The translations under genes were made by a program, and so were the position numbers. The notes under the pieces are model-generated. The model was given only the letters and a program-made list of their open reading frames with translations. It had not been told where the DNA came from and ran no database searches. 58,758 nt of DNA, from positions 1 through 58,758 of the forward strand of contig CAYWEX010000005.1 of assembly GCA_964457785.1 (NCBI GenBank), in the 5' to 3' direction. Below are positions 2,286-51,519 of the stretch, piece after piece. The first letter of the stretch is position 1. Every line of letters begins with the position of its first letter. The DNA is from Candidatus Woesearchaeota archaeon (GTDB taxonomy: Archaea > Nanobdellota > Nanobdellia > SCGC-AAA011-G17 > JACPIM01).

Positions 2286-2762
2286 TTATTGTTTTGTGAA
2301 CGGAGAAATAATTTGGTCTTCAACAACTTCTGAATTCCCATCATTAATCCTTAAATTTATTACATTCAGATTTCTCAAAACTACTGTGACATTCCACAAG
2401 ATATTCCTATCTCTTGATTCAAGAGAAATAATCATCTTTGAGAAGTTTTCTTCTTTGTATTTTTTAACCAACAAGAAATTAGCTATTGAAACTGCTTCTT
2501 TTTCTTCTAATTTTAGATTTCCCAAGAATAATTCTTCTGGATTCTGATTTTTAGACAACAATATGTTTGTATCTTTCAGAATAACTTCATCATTATCTAC
2601 AAAAAAAGTGTATGTTGATTTTGTTTCAGCTGAGAAATAATTAAATTCCCATAATCTTTTTATCTGAGCATCATTCAGGAAACAACTTACCAACCTGGCT
2701 CTTGATATTATGGCCTTAAATTTCTCTGAATTTCTTATCTTATCAAAGTCTTCTTTTATCAT
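2286..2762 (-). CDS. hypothetical protein
   Basis: 158-aa ORF starting 3 bp after the thrS stop, probably co-transcribed. Confidence 0.7.
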   Translation of the reverse strand: MIKEDFDKIRNSEKFKAIISRARLVSCFLNDAQIKRLWEFNYFSAETKSTYTFFVDNDEVILKDTNILLSKNQNPEELFLGNLKLEEKEAVSIANFLLVKKYKEENFSKMIISLESRDRNILWNVTVVLRNLNVINLRINDGNSEVVEDQIISPFTKQ

Positions 2763-2764
2763 TT

Positions 2765-4948
2765 TTATAGTTTAGAATTAATGCTTCTAGATGAGACTTC
2801 TTCTTTTAATAAGCTTAAGAATTCTTCTGTTTTGACATTAAATTTAACCTTACCATCTCTTGTCCTTATTGCCAAGGTTTTATTTTCTGTTTCTTTGTCT
2901 CCTATTGTAATAATATAGGGAATTTTCTGCATTGTAGCTTCAAGAACTTTCTTCCCCAAAGTTTCCGGCTTGTCATTTAATTCTACCCTGATATTATTTT
3001 CTTTAAATTTGCTTTCAATTTCTTTTGCAAAATTTATTGATCTGTCTGTAACTGTTATAATTTCTGCTTGAACAGGAGACAGCCATAACGGCATCTTACC
3101 TGCAAAATGCTCTAACAAAAAAGCCATGAATCTTTCATGAGTTGATAAAGGTGCCCTGTGAATTACAAAAACTTCATTGTTTTCTTTTCCTTCTTTATCA
3201 TTGTATTTTAAATTGAAGTTTTTCTTTGCTGCAAAATCCAACTGGATTGTTGACATTGTTTCTTCTCTTCCAATTACAGATTTAAATTGTATATCTAATT
3301 TAGGACCATAGAAAGCAGCTTCATCTGGCTTTTCAATAAATTTAACATTTAATTTTTTCAATACATTTCTTAAAACATTTTCTGTAAATTTCCAATTTTC
3401 CGGCTGGTCAATATATTTTGCCTTATTTCTTGGATCATGCAAAGATAATCTAAACCAGAAGTCCTTAAGACCAAAAGTTTCAAAATATTCTTTTGTCATA
3501 GAAACTACATTCTTGAATTCTTCTTCTATCTGGTCTTTAGAACAATAAATGTGTGCATCATTCATTGACAGCATTCTAACTCTTAACAAGCCAGCCAATG
3601 TTCCTGATAATTCATTTCTATAAACTGTACCGTATTCTGCCAATCTTAATGGCAGTTCTTTATAGCTTCTCGCCCTGGAATTAAATATAATATGATGAAG
3701 AGGGCAGTTCATCGGTTTAATATAATATGTACCGTCATCCAAATTCATTTCTGGGTACATGCCATCTTTGTAGTAAGGCAAATGACCGGACTGCAAATAT
3801 AATTCTTTTTTAGCCAAGTGAGGAGTTGAAACTCTTACATAGCCATATTTTTCTTCTGTTTCAATTACGAATTTTTCAACTTCATTTCTAATTAAAGTTC
3901 CTTTTGGCAGCCATATTGGCAATCCTTTTCCAATTAAATCTGAAAATGTGAATAATTCAAGCTGTTTTCCCAATGTTCTGTGATCTCTTTTTTCTGCTTC
4001 TTCCTGTTGTTTTAAATAAATATCCAAATCTTTTTGATTTTCAAAAGCAATACCATAAATTCTCTGCAACTGCTTATTGTATTGAGAACCTTTCCAGTAA
4101 ACGCCTGATGTTAACAATAATTTGAAAACAGAAGTTTTAGGAATTTCTTCCAACGCTTCACCTAATATTACATCTTCATATCCATCCAGCTCATATATTT
4201 TAGTTTTTTTAATATCTTTCAAGATTTCTTTTTTATACAACTTGTCTTTAAATTTTGATTTTGCTTTTTTTAATTTTATTCCTTTTTGAAGAAGTTCGTG
4301 CATCTTTTTTTCTATTCTTTTGATATCATCTGGATTAAATGGATTGGGCTTTTCAAAATCATAATAAAATTTGTCTTCATCCAAGTAATTTAAAGCTGGC
4401 TTAGAATTTGGAAACAATGACAGAACTGCTTTTCCCAACAATAAAGTAAAAGCATTTCTTAGTTTGTCTAATTTATTTAATTCTTTAATCTGAATTTCCA
4501 AGGGCTTGTCTATTTTTTCTACACCTTTTGAGTCTGCCAAAATTTCCCTTGATAATTCTGACAAAGGATGGCCTTTTGTTGATATTTCAAATGTTTTGTA
4601 ATGGCCGAAAGGAGCCCTAGTTACTTTGAAATCTTTTTTTAGTTTAGATTCTGCATCTTTTAACATCTGCAAAGCAAATTTAGGAGAAGATAATTTAGAG
4701 CTTAAATGAGCATAAGGATAAATAACTATATTTTTTTCCTTAACTTGGTCTGAAATTAACTTAATTTCTTTTACCAAATTATCAAGAATAATTTTTGGAT
4801 TTTTTTCATCTTCTGATTCTACTGCTGTAAAGATTACCAGACATTCATTTACTTTAACTTCCTTGTTAGAAACTTCCTCAGCCTCTTTTATTGCAACTTT
4901 TACGGGCTTGAATTTCAAGTGGTCAGCGTGTATAGCCAGTATTTTCAT
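2765..4948 (-). CDS. thrS: threonine-tRNA ligase, chimeric (archaeal editing domain + degenerate bacterial N2 domain + bacterial-type core)
   Basis: N-terminal YPYAHLS/APFG.YK/KGHPLSELSR; core KPMNCP, YRNELSG..GLLRVR, DAHI, FYGPKLD, IHRA; C-terminal anticodon-binding domain. Confidence 0.96.
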   Translation of the reverse strand: MKILAIHADHLKFKPVKVAIKEAEEVSNKEVKVNECLVIFTAVESEDEKNPKIILDNLVKEIKLISDQVKEKNIVIYPYAHLSSKLSSPKFALQMLKDAESKLKKDFKVTRAPFGHYKTFEISTKGHPLSELSREILADSKGVEKIDKPLEIQIKELNKLDKLRNAFTLLLGKAVLSLFPNSKPALNYLDEDKFYYDFEKPNPFNPDDIKRIEKKMHELLQKGIKLKKAKSKFKDKLYKKEILKDIKKTKIYELDGYEDVILGEALEEIPKTSVFKLLLTSGVYWKGSQYNKQLQRIYGIAFENQKDLDIYLKQQEEAEKRDHRTLGKQLELFTFSDLIGKGLPIWLPKGTLIRNEVEKFVIETEEKYGYVRVSTPHLAKKELYLQSGHLPYYKDGMYPEMNLDDGTYYIKPMNCPLHHIIFNSRARSYKELPLRLAEYGTVYRNELSGTLAGLLRVRMLSMNDAHIYCSKDQIEEEFKNVVSMTKEYFETFGLKDFWFRLSLHDPRNKAKYIDQPENWKFTENVLRNVLKKLNVKFIEKPDEAAFYGPKLDIQFKSVIGREETMSTIQLDFAAKKNFNLKYNDKEGKENNEVFVIHRAPLSTHERFMAFLLEHFAGKMPLWLSPVQAEIITVTDRSINFAKEIESKFKENNIRVELNDKPETLGKKVLEATMQKIPYIITIGDKETENKTLAIRTRDGKVKFNVKTEEFLSLLKEEVSSRSINSKL

Positions 4949-9635: not shown

Positions 9636-9833
9636 CTATCCGCCTGAAATGACAGGTAAAATCCTTAATTTATCATTATTATTTAATTTTGTTTTATCTG
9701 TAATTAATTCATTGTTTCTTATTATCAAAGAAGCTTCTGGATTAAGATTTAGCTTTTTGAATAATTCATTCAGATCATTAATTTCCAGATCCTTAGATTC
9801 TCTTGTCCTTTCAAGGAATACTGTTATTTTCAT
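9636..9833 (-). CDS. ubiquitin-like sulfur carrier (MoaD/ThiS/SAMP family)
   Basis: 65 aa ending PVISGG; first gene of an apparent operon with thiI and ncsA. Confidence 0.9.
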   Translation of the reverse strand: MKITVFLERTRESKDLEINDLNELFKKLNLNPEASLIIRNNELITDKTKLNNNDKLRILPVISGG

Positions 9834-9869
9834 AGATCAAGGGCTTTTATGGGGATTTATAATATTTTT

Positions 9870-9878
9870 GATTTATAT
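9870..9878. repeat. target-site duplication of element 1, left copy (GATTTATAT; right copy 11170-11178)
   Basis: identical 9-mer directly outside both inverted repeats; 10 bp if the adjacent T is counted. Confidence 0.9.
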
Positions 9879-9966
9879 GGCTTTGCACATAAATTCAAAT
9901 TTAAGAAATCTTTAAAATAAATCCGTAAACTTTTCGGTGTTTATTACTTTATAATTAAACAACAAG

Positions 9967-10030
9967 TTATATATAAATTTCACTGGACAAATTCACTGGA
10001 CATTTCGTGGACCTGCCTATCGCTTATAAA
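9967..10030 (+). promoter_or_regulatory. two TATA-like boxes flanking 13-bp-period direct repeats upstream of tnpB
   Basis: TTATATATAAA 9967-9977; TTCACTGGACA at 9979 and 9992 plus a degenerate third; CTTATAAA 10023-10030; same layout at 24238-24301. Confidence 0.5.
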
Positions 10031-10056
10031 TAAAATTGTCTTTTTCTTATTTTAAT

Positions 10057-11136
10057 ATGAAAAAAGAGATAAAATTAACCAAAGTAATCAAAGCATCTGT
10101 AATTAATCTAACTAATAGAAAGAGAGATTTATTGGATAATGATTATAATAATTATCAGTGGTGGATGATATTTGGTGTTGATAATGGATTATTAAGTTGT
10201 TTTAAAGCAGCAAAAGGATGGAAACAGGAAAAAATCAAATATAAAAATTACTCGTTACCATTATGGTCTTCTTTGATTAAAGACTGGTTTAGAAAAAGAA
10301 AAACTAAATTAACTGAAGACTGGATTAAGATTCCCTGCAGCAAAAGAAAAGGGCAGGGTTTATGGTTGCCATTAAAATTTCATCAAAAACTACCTGAAAA
10401 ATACAAATTAAAAGATTCTTTTCTAGTTAAAAAGAATGACAAATACTATATTTATTTCACAATAGAATTAGATTGTCTTAAGTTGTATAAACCTAAAGAA
10501 GTAATTGGAATAGACTTAGGATTAAAAAATCCAGTTACTTTAGTAAATATCAATAATAAACAAACTAAATTCTTAGGAAGAGAATTAAAGAAAGTTAAAG
10601 GCAAATATTATTATTTAAGAAAGAAGTTAGGACAAAGCAAGAATTTAAAACAAATCAAGAAAATTAGAAATAAAGAGAAGAGAAAGATTAATTCTATATT
10701 GCATACCTTATCAAAGGCCATTATACTAGAAGCTTTTAACAATAAATCAGCTATTGTAATTGGAAAATTAAAAGATTTAAAGAAAAATAAGGGAAGGAAG
10801 TTTAACAGAAAGTTATCTACTTTTTCATATTATCAGTTTACCAAGTTTTTAGAATATAAATCTCAACAATTAGGTATTCCATTCATAAAAGTAAATGAAG
10901 CATATACAAGCAAGACCTGTAGTGTTTGTAACAGTCCAGGTACTAGAATAAAGAATTGGTTTAAGTGTAATACATGTGATTATGGAGATAATGCAGATAG
11001 AAATGCTGCAATAAATATAGGAAAACGGGGTTCAAGCTATATGTTTGGATCAGGGGCAAATGCTTTTGCCCAGAAGCCTATCCAGAATAGGCAAGCACAA
11101 CCATTTAATAATTTGAAAAACAAACAAATTTTGTAA
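10057..11136 (+). CDS. tnpB: TnpB-family RNA-guided endonuclease, compact, rearranged RuvC-II
   Basis: VIGIDLG (RuvC-I), IVIGKL, VNEAYTSKTC, CxxC..CxxC, NADRNAAINI (RuvC-III); start set to ATG 10057 by homology to the second copy. Confidence 0.93.
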   Translation: MKKEIKLTKVIKASVINLTNRKRDLLDNDYNNYQWWMIFGVDNGLLSCFKAAKGWKQEKIKYKNYSLPLWSSLIKDWFRKRKTKLTEDWIKIPCSKRKGQGLWLPLKFHQKLPEKYKLKDSFLVKKNDKYYIYFTIELDCLKLYKPKEVIGIDLGLKNPVTLVNINNKQTKFLGRELKKVKGKYYYLRKKLGQSKNLKQIKKIRNKEKRKINSILHTLSKAIILEAFNNKSAIVIGKLKDLKKNKGRKFNRKLSTFSYYQFTKFLEYKSQQLGIPFIKVNEAYTSKTCSVCNSPGTRIKNWFKCNTCDYGDNADRNAAINIGKRGSSYMFGSGANAFAQKPIQNRQAQPFNNLKNKQIL

Positions 11137-11189
11137 ATTTGTTATAATTGTTAATTTATGTGCAAAGCTGATTTATATAGAAGAAGTAG
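11042..11189 (+). ncRNA. predicted omega-RNA scaffold plus flank-derived guide, element 1
   Basis: hairpins 11054-11071, 11076-11092, 11123-11143; 60 nt (11042-11101) identical between the two copies; boundaries inferred. Confidence 0.55.
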
Positions 11190-11204
11190 TAAAAAGCACT
11201 ATTT

Positions 11205-11315
11205 TTATTGTGCTCTGCAGTTTAAACAATAAAAGAAATCTAATTCTTCTTCATCTTCTTTTATATTATACTTTATTCCGCAGTTTTCACATACTCTTTT
11301 TTTGATTTTAATCAC
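11205..11315 (-). CDS. small zinc-ribbon protein (36 aa, not in ORF track)
   Basis: manual translation VIKIKKRVCENCGIKYNIKEDEEELDFFYCLNCRAQ; two CxxC pairs; GTG start within AGGTGA. Confidence 0.55.
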   Translation of the reverse strand: MIKIKKRVCENCGIKYNIKEDEEELDFFYCLNCRAQ

Positions 11316-23962: not shown

Positions 23963-24097
23963 TAAGATTTTTATTAAAAAGCTTAAGCAAAAATAAGAAC
24001 CCAGGTTCTTATCAACTCCTCATAAAAAGAACTAACCCTTTAAACATTTTAAAAAAAGCTTTACCAAAAATAAGAACCAAGGTTCTTATCAACTCCT
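23963..24097. repeat. modular palindromic intergenic repeat, tandem double copy
   Basis: two rounds of AAAAAGCTT..CAAAAA-TAAGAACC-NN-GGTTCTTATCAACTCCT. Confidence 0.85.
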
Positions 24098-24159
24098 AAT
24101 GAAGTAAAGTAACATAAAAAAAGTAAGCTAGAAAATTATATAAATGTCGTTTAATAACT

Positions 24160-25435
24160 GGCTTTGAACATTAAATTCAAAATTAAAATAAATCCGGAAA
24201 CTTTCCGGAGTTTATTACTTTATAATTAAACAACAGGTTATATATAAATTTCACTGGACAAATTCACTGGACATTTCAGGGACCTGCCTAGTGCTTATAA
24301 ACAAATTAGTCTTTTTCTGATTTTAATGAAAAAAGAGATAAAATTAACTAAAGTTATCAAAGCTTCTGTAATAGATTTAACTAAAAATAAAAAAGAATTA
24401 TTGGATAAGGATTATAATAATTATCAATGGTGGATGATATTTGGTATTGATAATGGATTATTATCTTGTTTTAAAGCAGCGAAAGGATGGAAACAAGAAA
24501 AGATAAAATATAAAGAATATAGTTTACCATTAGAATCAAGGTTTATTAAAGACTGGTTCAGGAAAAGAGATACTAAACTAACTGAAGACTGGATTAAGAT
24601 TCCTTGCAGCAAAAGAAAAGGACAGGGATTATGGCTTCCATTAAAATATCATCAGGAATTGCCTGACAAATATACTTTAAAAGATTCCTTTTTAGTAAGA
24701 AAGAATGATAAATATTATATTTATTTCACAGTAGGGGTAGATTGTCCTAAATTGTATAAACCAAAAGAAGTAATTGGAATAGACTTAGGACTTAAAAACC
24801 CAGTTACTTTGGTTAATATTAATAATAAACAAACTAAGTTCTTGGGAAAAGAATTGAAGAAAGTTAAAGGAAAATATTATTACTTAAGAAAGAAGTTAGG
24901 ACAAAATAAAAATCTTAAACAAATAAAAAAGATAAGAAACAAGGAAAAAAGAAAGATTAATTCTATATTGCATACTTTATCCAAAGCAATTGTATTAGAA
25001 GCTTATGATAATAAATCAGCTATTGTTATAGGAAAATTAAAAGACTTAAAGAAAAATAAAGGAAGAAAGTTTAACAGAAAGTTATCTAATTTCTCCCATT
25101 ATCAATTTACTAAATTCCTAGAATATAAATCTCAACAATTAGGTATTCCATTCATAAAAGTAAATGAAGCATATACTAGCAAGACCTGTAATGTTTGTAA
25201 CAGTCCAGGTATAAGAATAAAGAATTGGTTTAAGTGTAATACTTGTAATTATGAAGACAATGCAGACAGAAATGCTGCAATAAATATAGGAAAACGGGGT
25301 TCAAGCCATGTGTTTGGATCAGGGGCAAATGCTTTTGCCCAGAAGCCTATCCAGAATAGGCAAGCACAACATTTAATAATTGAAAAATAAACATATTTTG
25401 TAAATTGTTTAATATATTAATTTATGTGCAAAGCT
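24160..25435 (+). mobile_element. non-autonomous TIR element 2 carrying tnpB
   Basis: left end GGCTTTGAACATTAAATTC, right end AATTTATGTGCAAAGCT, TSD TTAATAACT at 24151-24159 and 25436-25444; interior homologous to element 1. Confidence 0.9.
24326..25390 (+). CDS. tnpB: TnpB-family RNA-guided endonuclease, compact, rearranged RuvC-II (copy 2)
   Basis: D153, G236, E281, D314, zinc finger C288/C291/C304/C307; about 34 aa differences from copy 1 by manual alignment. Confidence 0.93.
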   Translation: MKKEIKLTKVIKASVIDLTKNKKELLDKDYNNYQWWMIFGIDNGLLSCFKAAKGWKQEKIKYKEYSLPLESRFIKDWFRKRDTKLTEDWIKIPCSKRKGQGLWLPLKYHQELPDKYTLKDSFLVRKNDKYYIYFTVGVDCPKLYKPKEVIGIDLGLKNPVTLVNINNKQTKFLGKELKKVKGKYYYLRKKLGQNKNLKQIKKIRNKEKRKINSILHTLSKAIVLEAYDNKSAIVIGKLKDLKKNKGRKFNRKLSNFSHYQFTKFLEYKSQQLGIPFIKVNEAYTSKTCNVCNSPGIRIKNWFKCNTCNYEDNADRNAAINIGKRGSSHVFGSGANAFAQKPIQNRQAQHLIIEK

Positions 25436-25455
25436 TTAATAACTTTATTTAATCA
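25323..25455 (+). ncRNA. predicted omega-RNA scaffold plus guide, element 2
   Basis: hairpins 25323-25340, 25345-25361 and TAAACA/TGTTTA 25388-25411; boundaries inferred. Confidence 0.55.
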
Positions 25456-45360: not shown

Positions 45361-45387
45361 TAAGAACCCAGGTTCTTATAATCTCCT
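45361..45387. repeat. palindromic repeat module
   Basis: TAAGAACC-CA-GGTTCTTATAATCTCCT. Confidence 0.8.
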
Positions 45388-51394: not shown

Positions 51395-51472
51395 TTCGGA
51401 AGATTTCCGGATTAGCCGGAAAGTTTACGGATTTACCGGAAGATTTACGGAATTGAATTTATGTGCAAAGCC
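51395..51472 (-). mobile_element. solo left end of the tnpB TIR element family
   Basis: 51453-51472 is the exact reverse complement of 9879-9898; preceded by three tandem 20-nt CCGGAA..TTT(A/C)CGGA units. Confidence 0.8.
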
Positions 51473-51519
51473 TTTGTTATAGCAAGGTTTATATATTTTC
51501 AGATAGAATTTTATAATTA

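Follow-up and report, generated by a model that had tools for sequence, protein, structure and literature searches.

The window analysed here, contig C5 of genome G000 (58,758 nt; CAYWEX010000005.1 of assembly GCA_964457785.1), belongs to a metagenome-assembled genome (MAG) of Candidatus Woesearchaeota (802 kb, 29% GC, 86% complete). It contains two short mobile elements, each of which carries a single gene, tnpB, for a predicted RNA-guided nuclease. Both elements lie between terminal inverted repeats (TIRs) and are flanked by a target-site duplication (TSD) of 9 bp (coordinates in Table 1). In element 1 a 16-nt core, GCTTTGCACATAAATT, is exact and inverted at the two ends, with GATTTATAT on both sides. 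Element 2 is flanked by a different TSD, TTAATAACT; its right repeat is exact, and its left repeat is degenerate (GGCTTTGAACATTAAAT). A first-pass annotation of the window had described these boundaries, and they hold, as does its statement that each element contains tnpB only and that no transposase is present within the window (open reading frame [ORF], Pfam and NCBIfam evidence). A third full copy, on another contig of G000, has a perfect 9-bp TSD, CTTCTTAAA; the probability that such a 9/9 match arises by chance is about 1.6e-5 (p ~1.6e-5). These are the only three copies of tnpB in the genome, and all of them are bounded by TIRs.

The TnpB protein matches the Pfam families Cas12f1-like_TNB and OrfB_IS605 and the NCBIfam model guided_TnpB (NF040570, 178.9 bits). 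The RuvC residues D153, E281 and D314, together with the four cysteines of a zinc finger (CxxC..CxxC), are invariant in ten orthologues. In an alignment to solved Cas12f and TnpB chains, the canonical RuvC-II position is occupied by glycine (AIVIGKL), and a conserved glutamate is found 45 residues later, in NEAYTS. This is the relocated-glutamate arrangement that has been described for TnpB2 and Fanzor2 (PMC10711439). The three copies within the genome are 81-91% identical in nucleotide sequence, with a synonymous divergence (dS) of ~0.6 and a ratio of nonsynonymous to synonymous divergence (dN/dS) of 0.09-0.10. These ratios show that TnpB is under purifying selection; each tnpB copy has therefore stayed functional.

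Many genomes of the order also encode orthologous TnpBs, with 41-77% identity. Among species-representative genomes, a scan yielded 28 loci, all from MAGs of Candidatus Woesearchaeota/Nanoarchaeota, and a metagenome scan yielded 56 further loci. When G000 and these two sets were searched for unique elements that hold both ends, 21 tnpB elements with a TIR pair and a TSD were obtained; the duplication matches at 9/9 positions in 17 of them and at 8/9 in four. Most of the 21 begin with GGCTTTGCACA on the left and end with AGCTTTGCACA on the right. At L078 and about five other loci both ends are present with no TSD. At one locus, L084 (JACQNI010000006.1, ~2338-3617), 7 further nt on either side (TTTATGA / TCATAAA) prolong the inverted repeat beyond its usual limits, and a 9-bp direct repeat is lacking.

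Since a T adjoins the duplication at both window sites, the first-pass annotation had left open a TSD of 10 bp. The 21 independent elements settle the length as 9 bp. Immediately ahead of the left TSD, 9/21 have C and 12/21 have T, and the right end, ...AAAGCT, is kept in 20/21. Because the pre-TSD base varies while the right end is kept, the T belongs to the element; a 10-bp duplication is ruled out by the nine elements with C before the left TSD. Empty alleles, which that annotation had proposed to look for, were sought by searching relatives with the joined flanks. The site of element 1 is uninterrupted in G001, a genome of the same genus (81% identity across the junction), and the site of the third copy is uninterrupted in G001, G002 and G003. 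Each of these empty sites holds a single copy of the 9-mer region; thus, the insert is exactly the TIR-to-TIR segment plus one 9-mer. For element 2 no empty site was found, as the matches of its joined flanks in relatives do not span the junction.

The resident transposase and its elements

A search of the whole genome for the terminal sequence located a transposase-bearing element of 6931 bp on contig C6 of G000 (L013:1013-7943), bounded by GGCTTTGCACAA on either side and flanked by a perfect 9-bp TSD, AAAACAACA. The IS5-group transposase with the same ends that the first-pass annotation had predicted is therefore found in G000 itself, with the same terminal core and the same TSD length. The enzyme (345 aa) is encoded by the last gene of the element, which ends 4 nt before the right repeat. 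It matches PF01609 (DDE_Tnp_1) at 8.8e-25 and NF033579 (transpos_IS5_2) at 147.7 bits (cutoff 140), and is the sole transposase of its type in the genome. The other cargo includes a BsaWI-type restriction enzyme, an N4/N6 methyltransferase and a DUF2779 protein. No homologue of a Y1 transposase (PF01797) or of a serine recombinase (PF00239) is present in G000.

Five homologous transposases from other genomes lie in elements of 6.1-9.1 kb with perfect 9-bp TSDs, as seen in larger flanks. In the clade with ends that match those of the tnpB elements, each of the six transposons carries restriction-modification (R-M) genes, and no two have the same system (BsaWI, MvaI/BcnI, C5, N4/N6 and D12 methylases, type I S+M, and Eco57I-like). 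Where a transposase shares 41% identity or more with the G000 enzyme, its gene consistently stops a few bases short of ...TGTGCAAAGC(C/T); in G006 the element ends with ...TATTTATGTGCAAAGCT, which is nearly the right end of the tnpB elements. A sister clade has an N-terminal CxxC...CxH zinc-finger extension (the SWIM-finger IS5 clade). Its elements (4.9-7.4 kb) have GGCTTTGCCTGA or GGCTTTGTGTA ends, which differ in the inner part of the TIR, and again 9-bp TSDs. Altogether, perfect 9-bp TSDs surround ten transposase-bearing elements. These autonomous elements, at 4.9-9.1 kb with R-M and other cargo, are unlike the transposase-only insertion sequences (ISs) of ~1 kb.

The best plasmid matches of the transposase are ISVa2, ISAba13, ISAs4 and ISEc35 (all IS5 family), at 25-30% identity over about half of the protein. 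ISVa2 has a 9-bp TSD and ends of the IS903 pattern, GGCTTTGTTGCG; ISVa2 and ISAba13 share the ends GGCTTTGTTG. The likeness to IS903 thus lies in the GGCTTTG ends and the 9-bp TSD, and the protein comparison is with the four ISs just named. The first-pass annotation had counted a match of 13/17 positions between the left repeat of element 2 and the IS903 repeat that it quoted, and this arithmetic is correct.

The same group includes a miniature inverted-repeat transposable element (MITE) without tnpB. This 317-bp element, on contig C3 of G000, has a 9-bp TSD (AATTTTAAT) and end variants of the transposase element, and of tnpB it retains only the 3' guide-RNA region. MITE-type ends at breaks of contigs C4 and C19 evidently represent separate copies; the C4 right end equals the C3 MITE at all but 1 of ~85 bases. 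Since these near-identical copies bear the ends of the transposase element, MITE-type elements appear to have been mobilised recently in trans. MITE repeats also break the assembly, as two contigs end inside further copies.

Because the ends GGCTTTGCACA and the 9-bp TSDs are common to tnpB elements and transposase elements, the tnpB elements can be assigned to the same group. Very probably, they are non-autonomous and belong to an IS903-like branch of the IS5 family of DDE cut-and-paste transposons that is widespread in Woesearchaeota/Nanoarchaeota. Their sole cargo is tnpB, with a promoter of its own, and its guide RNA; RNA-guided homing is the predicted role of that cargo. The matching transposase is encoded in trans, on the 6-9-kb R-M-carrying elements with the same ends. 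The resident transposase, the empty sites and the lack of Y1 and serine enzymes support the proposal of the first-pass annotation that a DDE enzyme acting in trans moves TIR-bounded, non-autonomous tnpB elements with 9-bp TSDs.

Insertion beside promoters, the guide-RNA scaffold and orientation

Directly upstream of the left TSD, unrelated insertions share a strongly conserved 14-nt sequence, T-T-T-A-T-A-A-A-S-N-T-T-T-Y, that is, TTTATAAA-SN-TTTY. In a logo of the 21 sites, positions -12 and -9 are T and A, respectively, each in 20/21; -4 and -3 are both T, each in 19/21; and every site (21/21) has a pyrimidine at -1. No motif appears for the right flank in this logo; the absence of a mirrored motif rules out a symmetric transposase preference as the source of the T-rich 5' flank. 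The conserved left flank is not a part of the element either. Since the G001 empty site of element 1 already holds the promoter-type motif, the motif is host sequence.

The motif reads as a promoter. In 173 genes of G000 the generic promoter is (C/A)RAAA-NN-TTTATAAA, with the ATG 22-23 nt later, a spacing that implies leaderless transcripts. The insertion motif equals this leaderless promoter consensus of G000, TTTATAAA being a palindromic TATA box and the TTTY part being the complement of the B recognition element (BRE). A divergent ORF starts at promoter distance next to 46% of strong genomic matches to the motif (5% of controls), and at 11/21 insertion sites. At element 1 the divergent gene is a 65-aa ORF, below the 80-aa listing threshold, whose ATG is 22 nt from the TATA box that abuts the element. 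Its product ends in Gly-Gly and looks, by eye, ThiS/MoaD/SAMP-like. Thus, insertion occurs exactly at the upstream border of the BRE and leaves the promoter intact. The same target motif is used by transposase-bearing elements, by sister-clade elements in G002 and G029, by the MITE and by two solo ends. Because elements without tnpB use it as well, the target specificity is a property of the transposition machinery rather than of TnpB.

A second conserved region lies at the opposite end. The last ~150 nt of each tnpB element are conserved and form a predicted guide-RNA scaffold. It begins, in element 1, with AAACGGGG (11023) and continues through three hairpins with compensatory changes, an invariant CAAGCACA, a variable hairpin and the TIR. 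RNAalifold pairs GCACA with TGTGC of the right TIR. The covarying structure contains four helices, in which 98.6% of cells are paired; 12 pairs show double changes, compared with 4.1+-1.4 in shuffles (0/500), and slid controls collapse. A scan of positions 9800-11300 with Rfam gave chance-level matches only. The scaffold is kept in the MITE that lacks tnpB. Since the last helix uses the right TIR, the end of the scaffold coincides with the element boundary. Active TnpB systems and the Fanzors of TIR/TSD transposons show the same arrangement; the reRNAs of these Fanzors traverse the TIR and continue past the TSD (PMC10711439).

These features are combined in the following proposed mechanism. 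All members of the group insert directly beside TTTATAAA-SN-TTTY, at the upstream edge of a host promoter. The guide RNA would be transcribed through the right TIR, which forms the last scaffold helix, into the flank, so that the guide would consist of the 9-bp TSD and the right flank. In the unoccupied site, TTTY would stand before the sequence that matches the guide and could serve as the target-adjacent motif (TAM). TnpB would then cut empty or vacated alleles and favour the copying back of the element, as in IS200/IS605, and the TAM would be supplied by the target specificity of the transposase itself. The geometry agrees with this scheme: in ~20/21 sites TTTY lies 5' of the TSD and right flank, which is where a TAM is expected, and it is T-rich, as a TAM would be.

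Orientation provides a further clue. The motif is on the tnpB 5' side in 20/21 tnpB elements (p = 2e-5). Among transposase-bearing elements, it is at the transposase-proximal end in G000, G055 and G032 (also in G027 and G033) and at the distal end in G025 and G049. Because the transposase inserts either way and the tnpB elements are found in one orientation, the orientation of the latter points to a constraint linked to TnpB. A more tentative proposal goes beyond the homing role: the transposon group may recognise the BRE/TATA edge of promoters, possibly via bound TBP/TFB, with TTTY doubling as the TAM of TnpB and the one-way orientation as the footprint of homing. This extended version is a possibility rather than the expectation.

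Competing explanations

Several observations weigh against homing tnpB elements that are moved in trans by this transposase. Co-occurrence of the two partners is weak: in the set of 61 relatives, tnpB elements and a transposase with cognate TIRs are present in the same genome only in G000 and G032, and G040, G019, G060, G047 and G024 have tnpB elements and no DDE_Tnp_1 gene. Co-occurrence across the 61 genomes gives no clear signal, to which the incompleteness of MAGs may contribute. The TIRs of the window tnpB elements match those of the resident transposase element over the first 11 nt only. The divergence of the tnpB copies indicates that they are old, and recent mobilisation of the tnpB elements themselves is not supported. 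At the site of element 2, TCGT stands where TTTY is expected. The TTTY sequence, as the complement of the generic BRE, is found at these positions in 62-76% of ordinary promoters and is largely explained by the BRE consensus itself. Finally, the orientation bias could instead result from transcriptional constraints or interference.

The strongest alternative builds on several of these points. It accepts the carrier as described and treats TnpB as passive cargo, or as cargo with another use (defence, regulation or selfish persistence), so that TTTY and orientation would both come from promoter biology; selection would act against elements from which transcription of tnpB and omegaRNA ran on into the adjacent promoter and gene. 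The frequency of TTTY in ordinary promoters, the targeting of the motif by the transposase family with or without tnpB, the many genomes that have tnpB elements without a transposase, and the age of the tnpB copies are all consistent with this explanation. However, R-M-carrying elements tolerate both orientations at the same type of site, and the pyrimidine at -1 is present at 21/21 tnpB sites but at only ~71% of generic promoters. In addition, TnpB retains its catalytic residues, and its covarying scaffold stops at the boundary of the element, as is the case in active TnpB systems. Thus, passive cargo is judged rather unlikely, though it deserves more weight than the alternatives that follow.

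A different mover is improbable. The tnpB elements might be mobilised by the sister SWIM-finger IS5 clade, or by an enzyme on unbinned or extrachromosomal DNA, in which case the shared GGCTTTG would be a similarity at the level of the family only. Indeed, the sole IS5-family transposases of G002 and G029 lie in elements with GGCTTTGCCTGA ends, not GGCTTTGCACA, and five genomes with tnpB elements have no DDE_Tnp_1 gene. Yet the ...TGTGCAAAGC(C/T) terminus of the elements with the closer transposases, the near identity of the G006 end to the right end of the tnpB elements, and the match of the MITE ends to the resident transposase element all favour the enzyme found in G000.

A speculative scheme, which has very little to recommend it, takes the right TIR rather than the flank as the guide; TnpB would then cut at the termini of members of the family and contribute to excision. 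The last variable hairpin is indeed separated from the flank by ~17 nt of invariant TIR, and, by sequence geometry only, a cut by TnpB at the TAM-distal end of such a target would fall on the element boundary. However, the RNAalifold model places the TGTGC of the TIR in a scaffold helix with the invariant GCACA, the element would target itself, and the orientation bias would be left unexplained. Lastly, the idea that these are really IS200/IS605 (IS1341-type) or IS607 elements with incidental TIRs and TSDs, moved by a Y1 or serine enzyme, draws on the fact that tnpB with a 3' guide scaffold is the hallmark cargo of those families, but it is effectively refuted by at least 21 independent insertions with TIRs and 9-bp TSDs, by empty sites that define the insert as TIR-to-TIR plus one 9-mer, by the absence of PF01797 and PF00239 homologues from G000, and by the presence of the same ends around DDE-transposase elements.

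Relation to known systems and other features of the window

The first-pass annotation had presented a DDE-borne prokaryotic tnpB as new and had listed an earlier description among the refuting conditions; this claim does not stand, since such an association has been described previously (Altae-Tran et al. 2023, PNAS; PMC10691335). That study defined six branches of DDE-associated TnpBs with inverted terminal repeats (DDE-1 to DDE-6), and found solo TnpBs bounded by the same ends as the transposase-bearing copies. A 2026 review (PMC13565253) lists ISL2, IS630 and IS1031 as DDE partners; it considers DDE carriers rare in prokaryotes and suggests the requirement for a TAM as an obstacle. The elements described here share with these branches the location of TnpB inside the TIRs of a DDE transposon, with its 3' end near one element end, and solo copies that imply mobilisation in trans. 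They differ in their IS903-like partner (GGCTTTG ends, 9-bp TSD), their DPANN host and their insertion at the BRE/TATA promoter edge; moreover, both genes occur together at 0/84 loci, and the autonomous partners are R-M transposons of 6-9 kb. An IS903-like partner with a 9-bp TSD in DPANN is named in neither PMC10691335 nor PMC13565253. In a literature search, no paper was found that deals with a DPANN tnpB/IS903-like family or with archaeal IS5-type elements that target promoter edges. The concept of DDE-associated TnpBs is thus already known, and the additions made here are the promoter-edge target and the TAM-compatible orientation bias.

With the IS903 group (IS903; ISVa2, ISAba13), the carrier shares an IS5-family DDE_Tnp_1 transposase, GGCTTTG termini and the 9-bp TSD. 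In contrast to that group, the archaeal transposase has only ~25-30% identity to the ISVa2/ISAba13-type matches, the autonomous elements hold 5-8 kb of cargo, the specificity for a one-sided promoter motif is strong, and derivatives carry TnpB and omegaRNA. The cargo itself resembles that of IS200/IS605 elements, of IS1341-type solo tnpB, and of palindrome-associated transposable element (PATE) and MITE derivatives, in that a TnpB plus 3' omegaRNA module is present along with a miniature, RNA-only derivative. The logic of IS200/IS605, in which the transposase target is the TAM at the left end and the guide comes from the right flank, would be reproduced on a DDE carrier. However, the elements have non-hairpin ends, TIRs, a 9-bp TSD and a DDE mover in place of Y1 TnpA; unlike IS607, they have TIRs and TSDs and no serine recombinase.

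A eukaryotic parallel exists as well. Fanzor1 and Fanzor2 of TIR/TSD cut-and-paste transposons (Bao & Jurka 2013, PMC3627910; Yoon et al. 2023, PMC10711439) also represent TnpB-family nucleases captured by DDE transposons, with a reRNA that passes through the TIR (as predicted here) and, in Fanzor2 as in TnpB2, a relocated RuvC-II glutamate. Here the host is a prokaryote, the protein is compact (354-359 aa), and the TSD is long and variable; because of this length and variability, the TSD must be guide or spacer and not a fixed part of the scaffold. In prokaryotes, the tnpB/IS903-like family is a natural equivalent of what is seen with Fanzors.

Cas12 is derived from TnpB, a compact nuclease for genome editing whose biology is known almost only from single-strand IS200/IS605 and IS607 carriers. 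If the more tentative proposal above is correct, the family would represent a prokaryotic DDE-OMEGA partnership in which the transposase would guarantee a TAM before every new guide, and this would answer why DDE transposons so rarely keep TnpB. The family also makes available a predicted nuclease of 354-359 aa for which the guide scaffold is defined and a T-rich TAM is predicted. Precise, sequence-conserved insertion at the edge of archaeal promoters by IS5-family transposons, often with R-M genes, appears to be undescribed and would bear on how the tiny genomes of DPANN archaea tolerate mobile DNA.

An analogy, functional only, is offered by the Ty3 retroelement, which integrates at TFIIIB-bound Pol III start sites. 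There, too, precise insertion beside a TBP-type promoter spares coding sequence; the enzyme class and the domain of life are unrelated.

Table 1. Positions of the elements, their parts and related features (window coordinates unless a contig or locus is named)
Feature	Position	Strand	Basis or remark
Element 1	9879-11169	+	one gene, tnpB
Element 1, target motif TTTATAATATTTTT (TATA box + complement of BRE)	9856-9869	+	21-site logo, generic promoter logo, G001 empty site
Element 1, left TSD GATTTATAT	9870-9878	.	single copy in G001 empty site
Element 1, left TIR GGCTTTGCACATAAATT	9879-9895	+	end comparison
Element 1, 16-nt core GCTTTGCACATAAATT	9880-9895; 11153-11168	+; -	exact at both ends
Element 1, left arm: CCG-AAA-type sub-terminal repeats and promoter module	9896-10056	+
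Element 1, tnpB (359 aa)	10057-11136	+	Pfam/NCBIfam matches
Element 1, predicted omega/reRNA-like scaffold	11023-11169	+	overlaps tnpB 3' end, runs through right TIR
Element 1, right TIR AGCTTTGCACATAAATT (read inward)	11153-11169	-
Element 1, right TSD GATTTATAT	11170-11178	.	putative first 9 nt of guide
Divergent 65-aa ORF	9636-9833	-
Element 2 (1276 bp): left TIR, promoter module, tnpB, omegaRNA scaffold, right TIR	24160-25435	+
Element 2, target motif TATATAAATGTCGT	24137-24150	+	TATA good, TTTY part poor
Element 2, TSD TTAATAACT	left 24151-24159; right 25436-25444	.
Element 2, tnpB (354 aa)	24326-25390	+	90% identical to copy 1
Promoter/operator modules ahead of tnpB	9966-10045; 24237-24315
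Solo left end of related element (GGCTTTGCACATAAATT at 51472-51456)	51456-51495	-
Third tnpB element	G000:C3:67534-68832
Transposase-bearing element	G000:C6:35812-42742
Transposase of that element	G000:C6:41690-42724
MITE	G000:C3:10388-10704
MITE-type ends at contig breaks	C4:75927-76010; C19:1-76
Second solo GGCTTTGCACATAAATT end	G000:C2:73960-73976
Transposase-bearing loci outside G000	L179:8347-14973; L180, L181, L182, L184; L185-L189
Sister-clade loci	L185 (G002:C4), L186 (G029:C3), L188 (G016:C1), L189 (G007:C3)

Ahead of tnpB in both window elements lies a promoter/operator module of ~75 nt, composed of TTTATAAA, two to three copies of TTCACTGGACA (two in element 1) and a second TATA ~27 nt before the ATG. 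CCGGAAA-type repeats are frequent upstream of it. The same tnpB-type module also precedes LAGLIDADG endonuclease-like genes, a PD-(D/E)XK nuclease gene and small ORFs elsewhere in G000 (C1:8492-8568, C1:13285-13361, C1:70633-70745, C1:114177-114247, C3:62380-, C12:27182-27268 and C6:34946-). Thus, the selfish nuclease genes of this genome seem to share one regulatory cassette.

Neither of the two solo GGCTTTGCACATAAATT ends has a partner end that could be found. For the solo end in the window, the 9-mer TATAACAAA and the target motif TATATAAACCTTGC come first on the - strand, and sub-terminal repeats and an ORF of ~58 aa follow it; the end on contig C2 adjoins a 9-mer and a TATA-SN-TTTY-like motif. 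Other repeats are present near the elements as well. Units of ~60 nt just to the left of element 2 match dozens of sites in G000 and its relatives, and copies of a palindromic repeat, AAGAACCnAGGTTCTT, are located at 23995-24010, 24072-24087 and 45362-45377 of the window.

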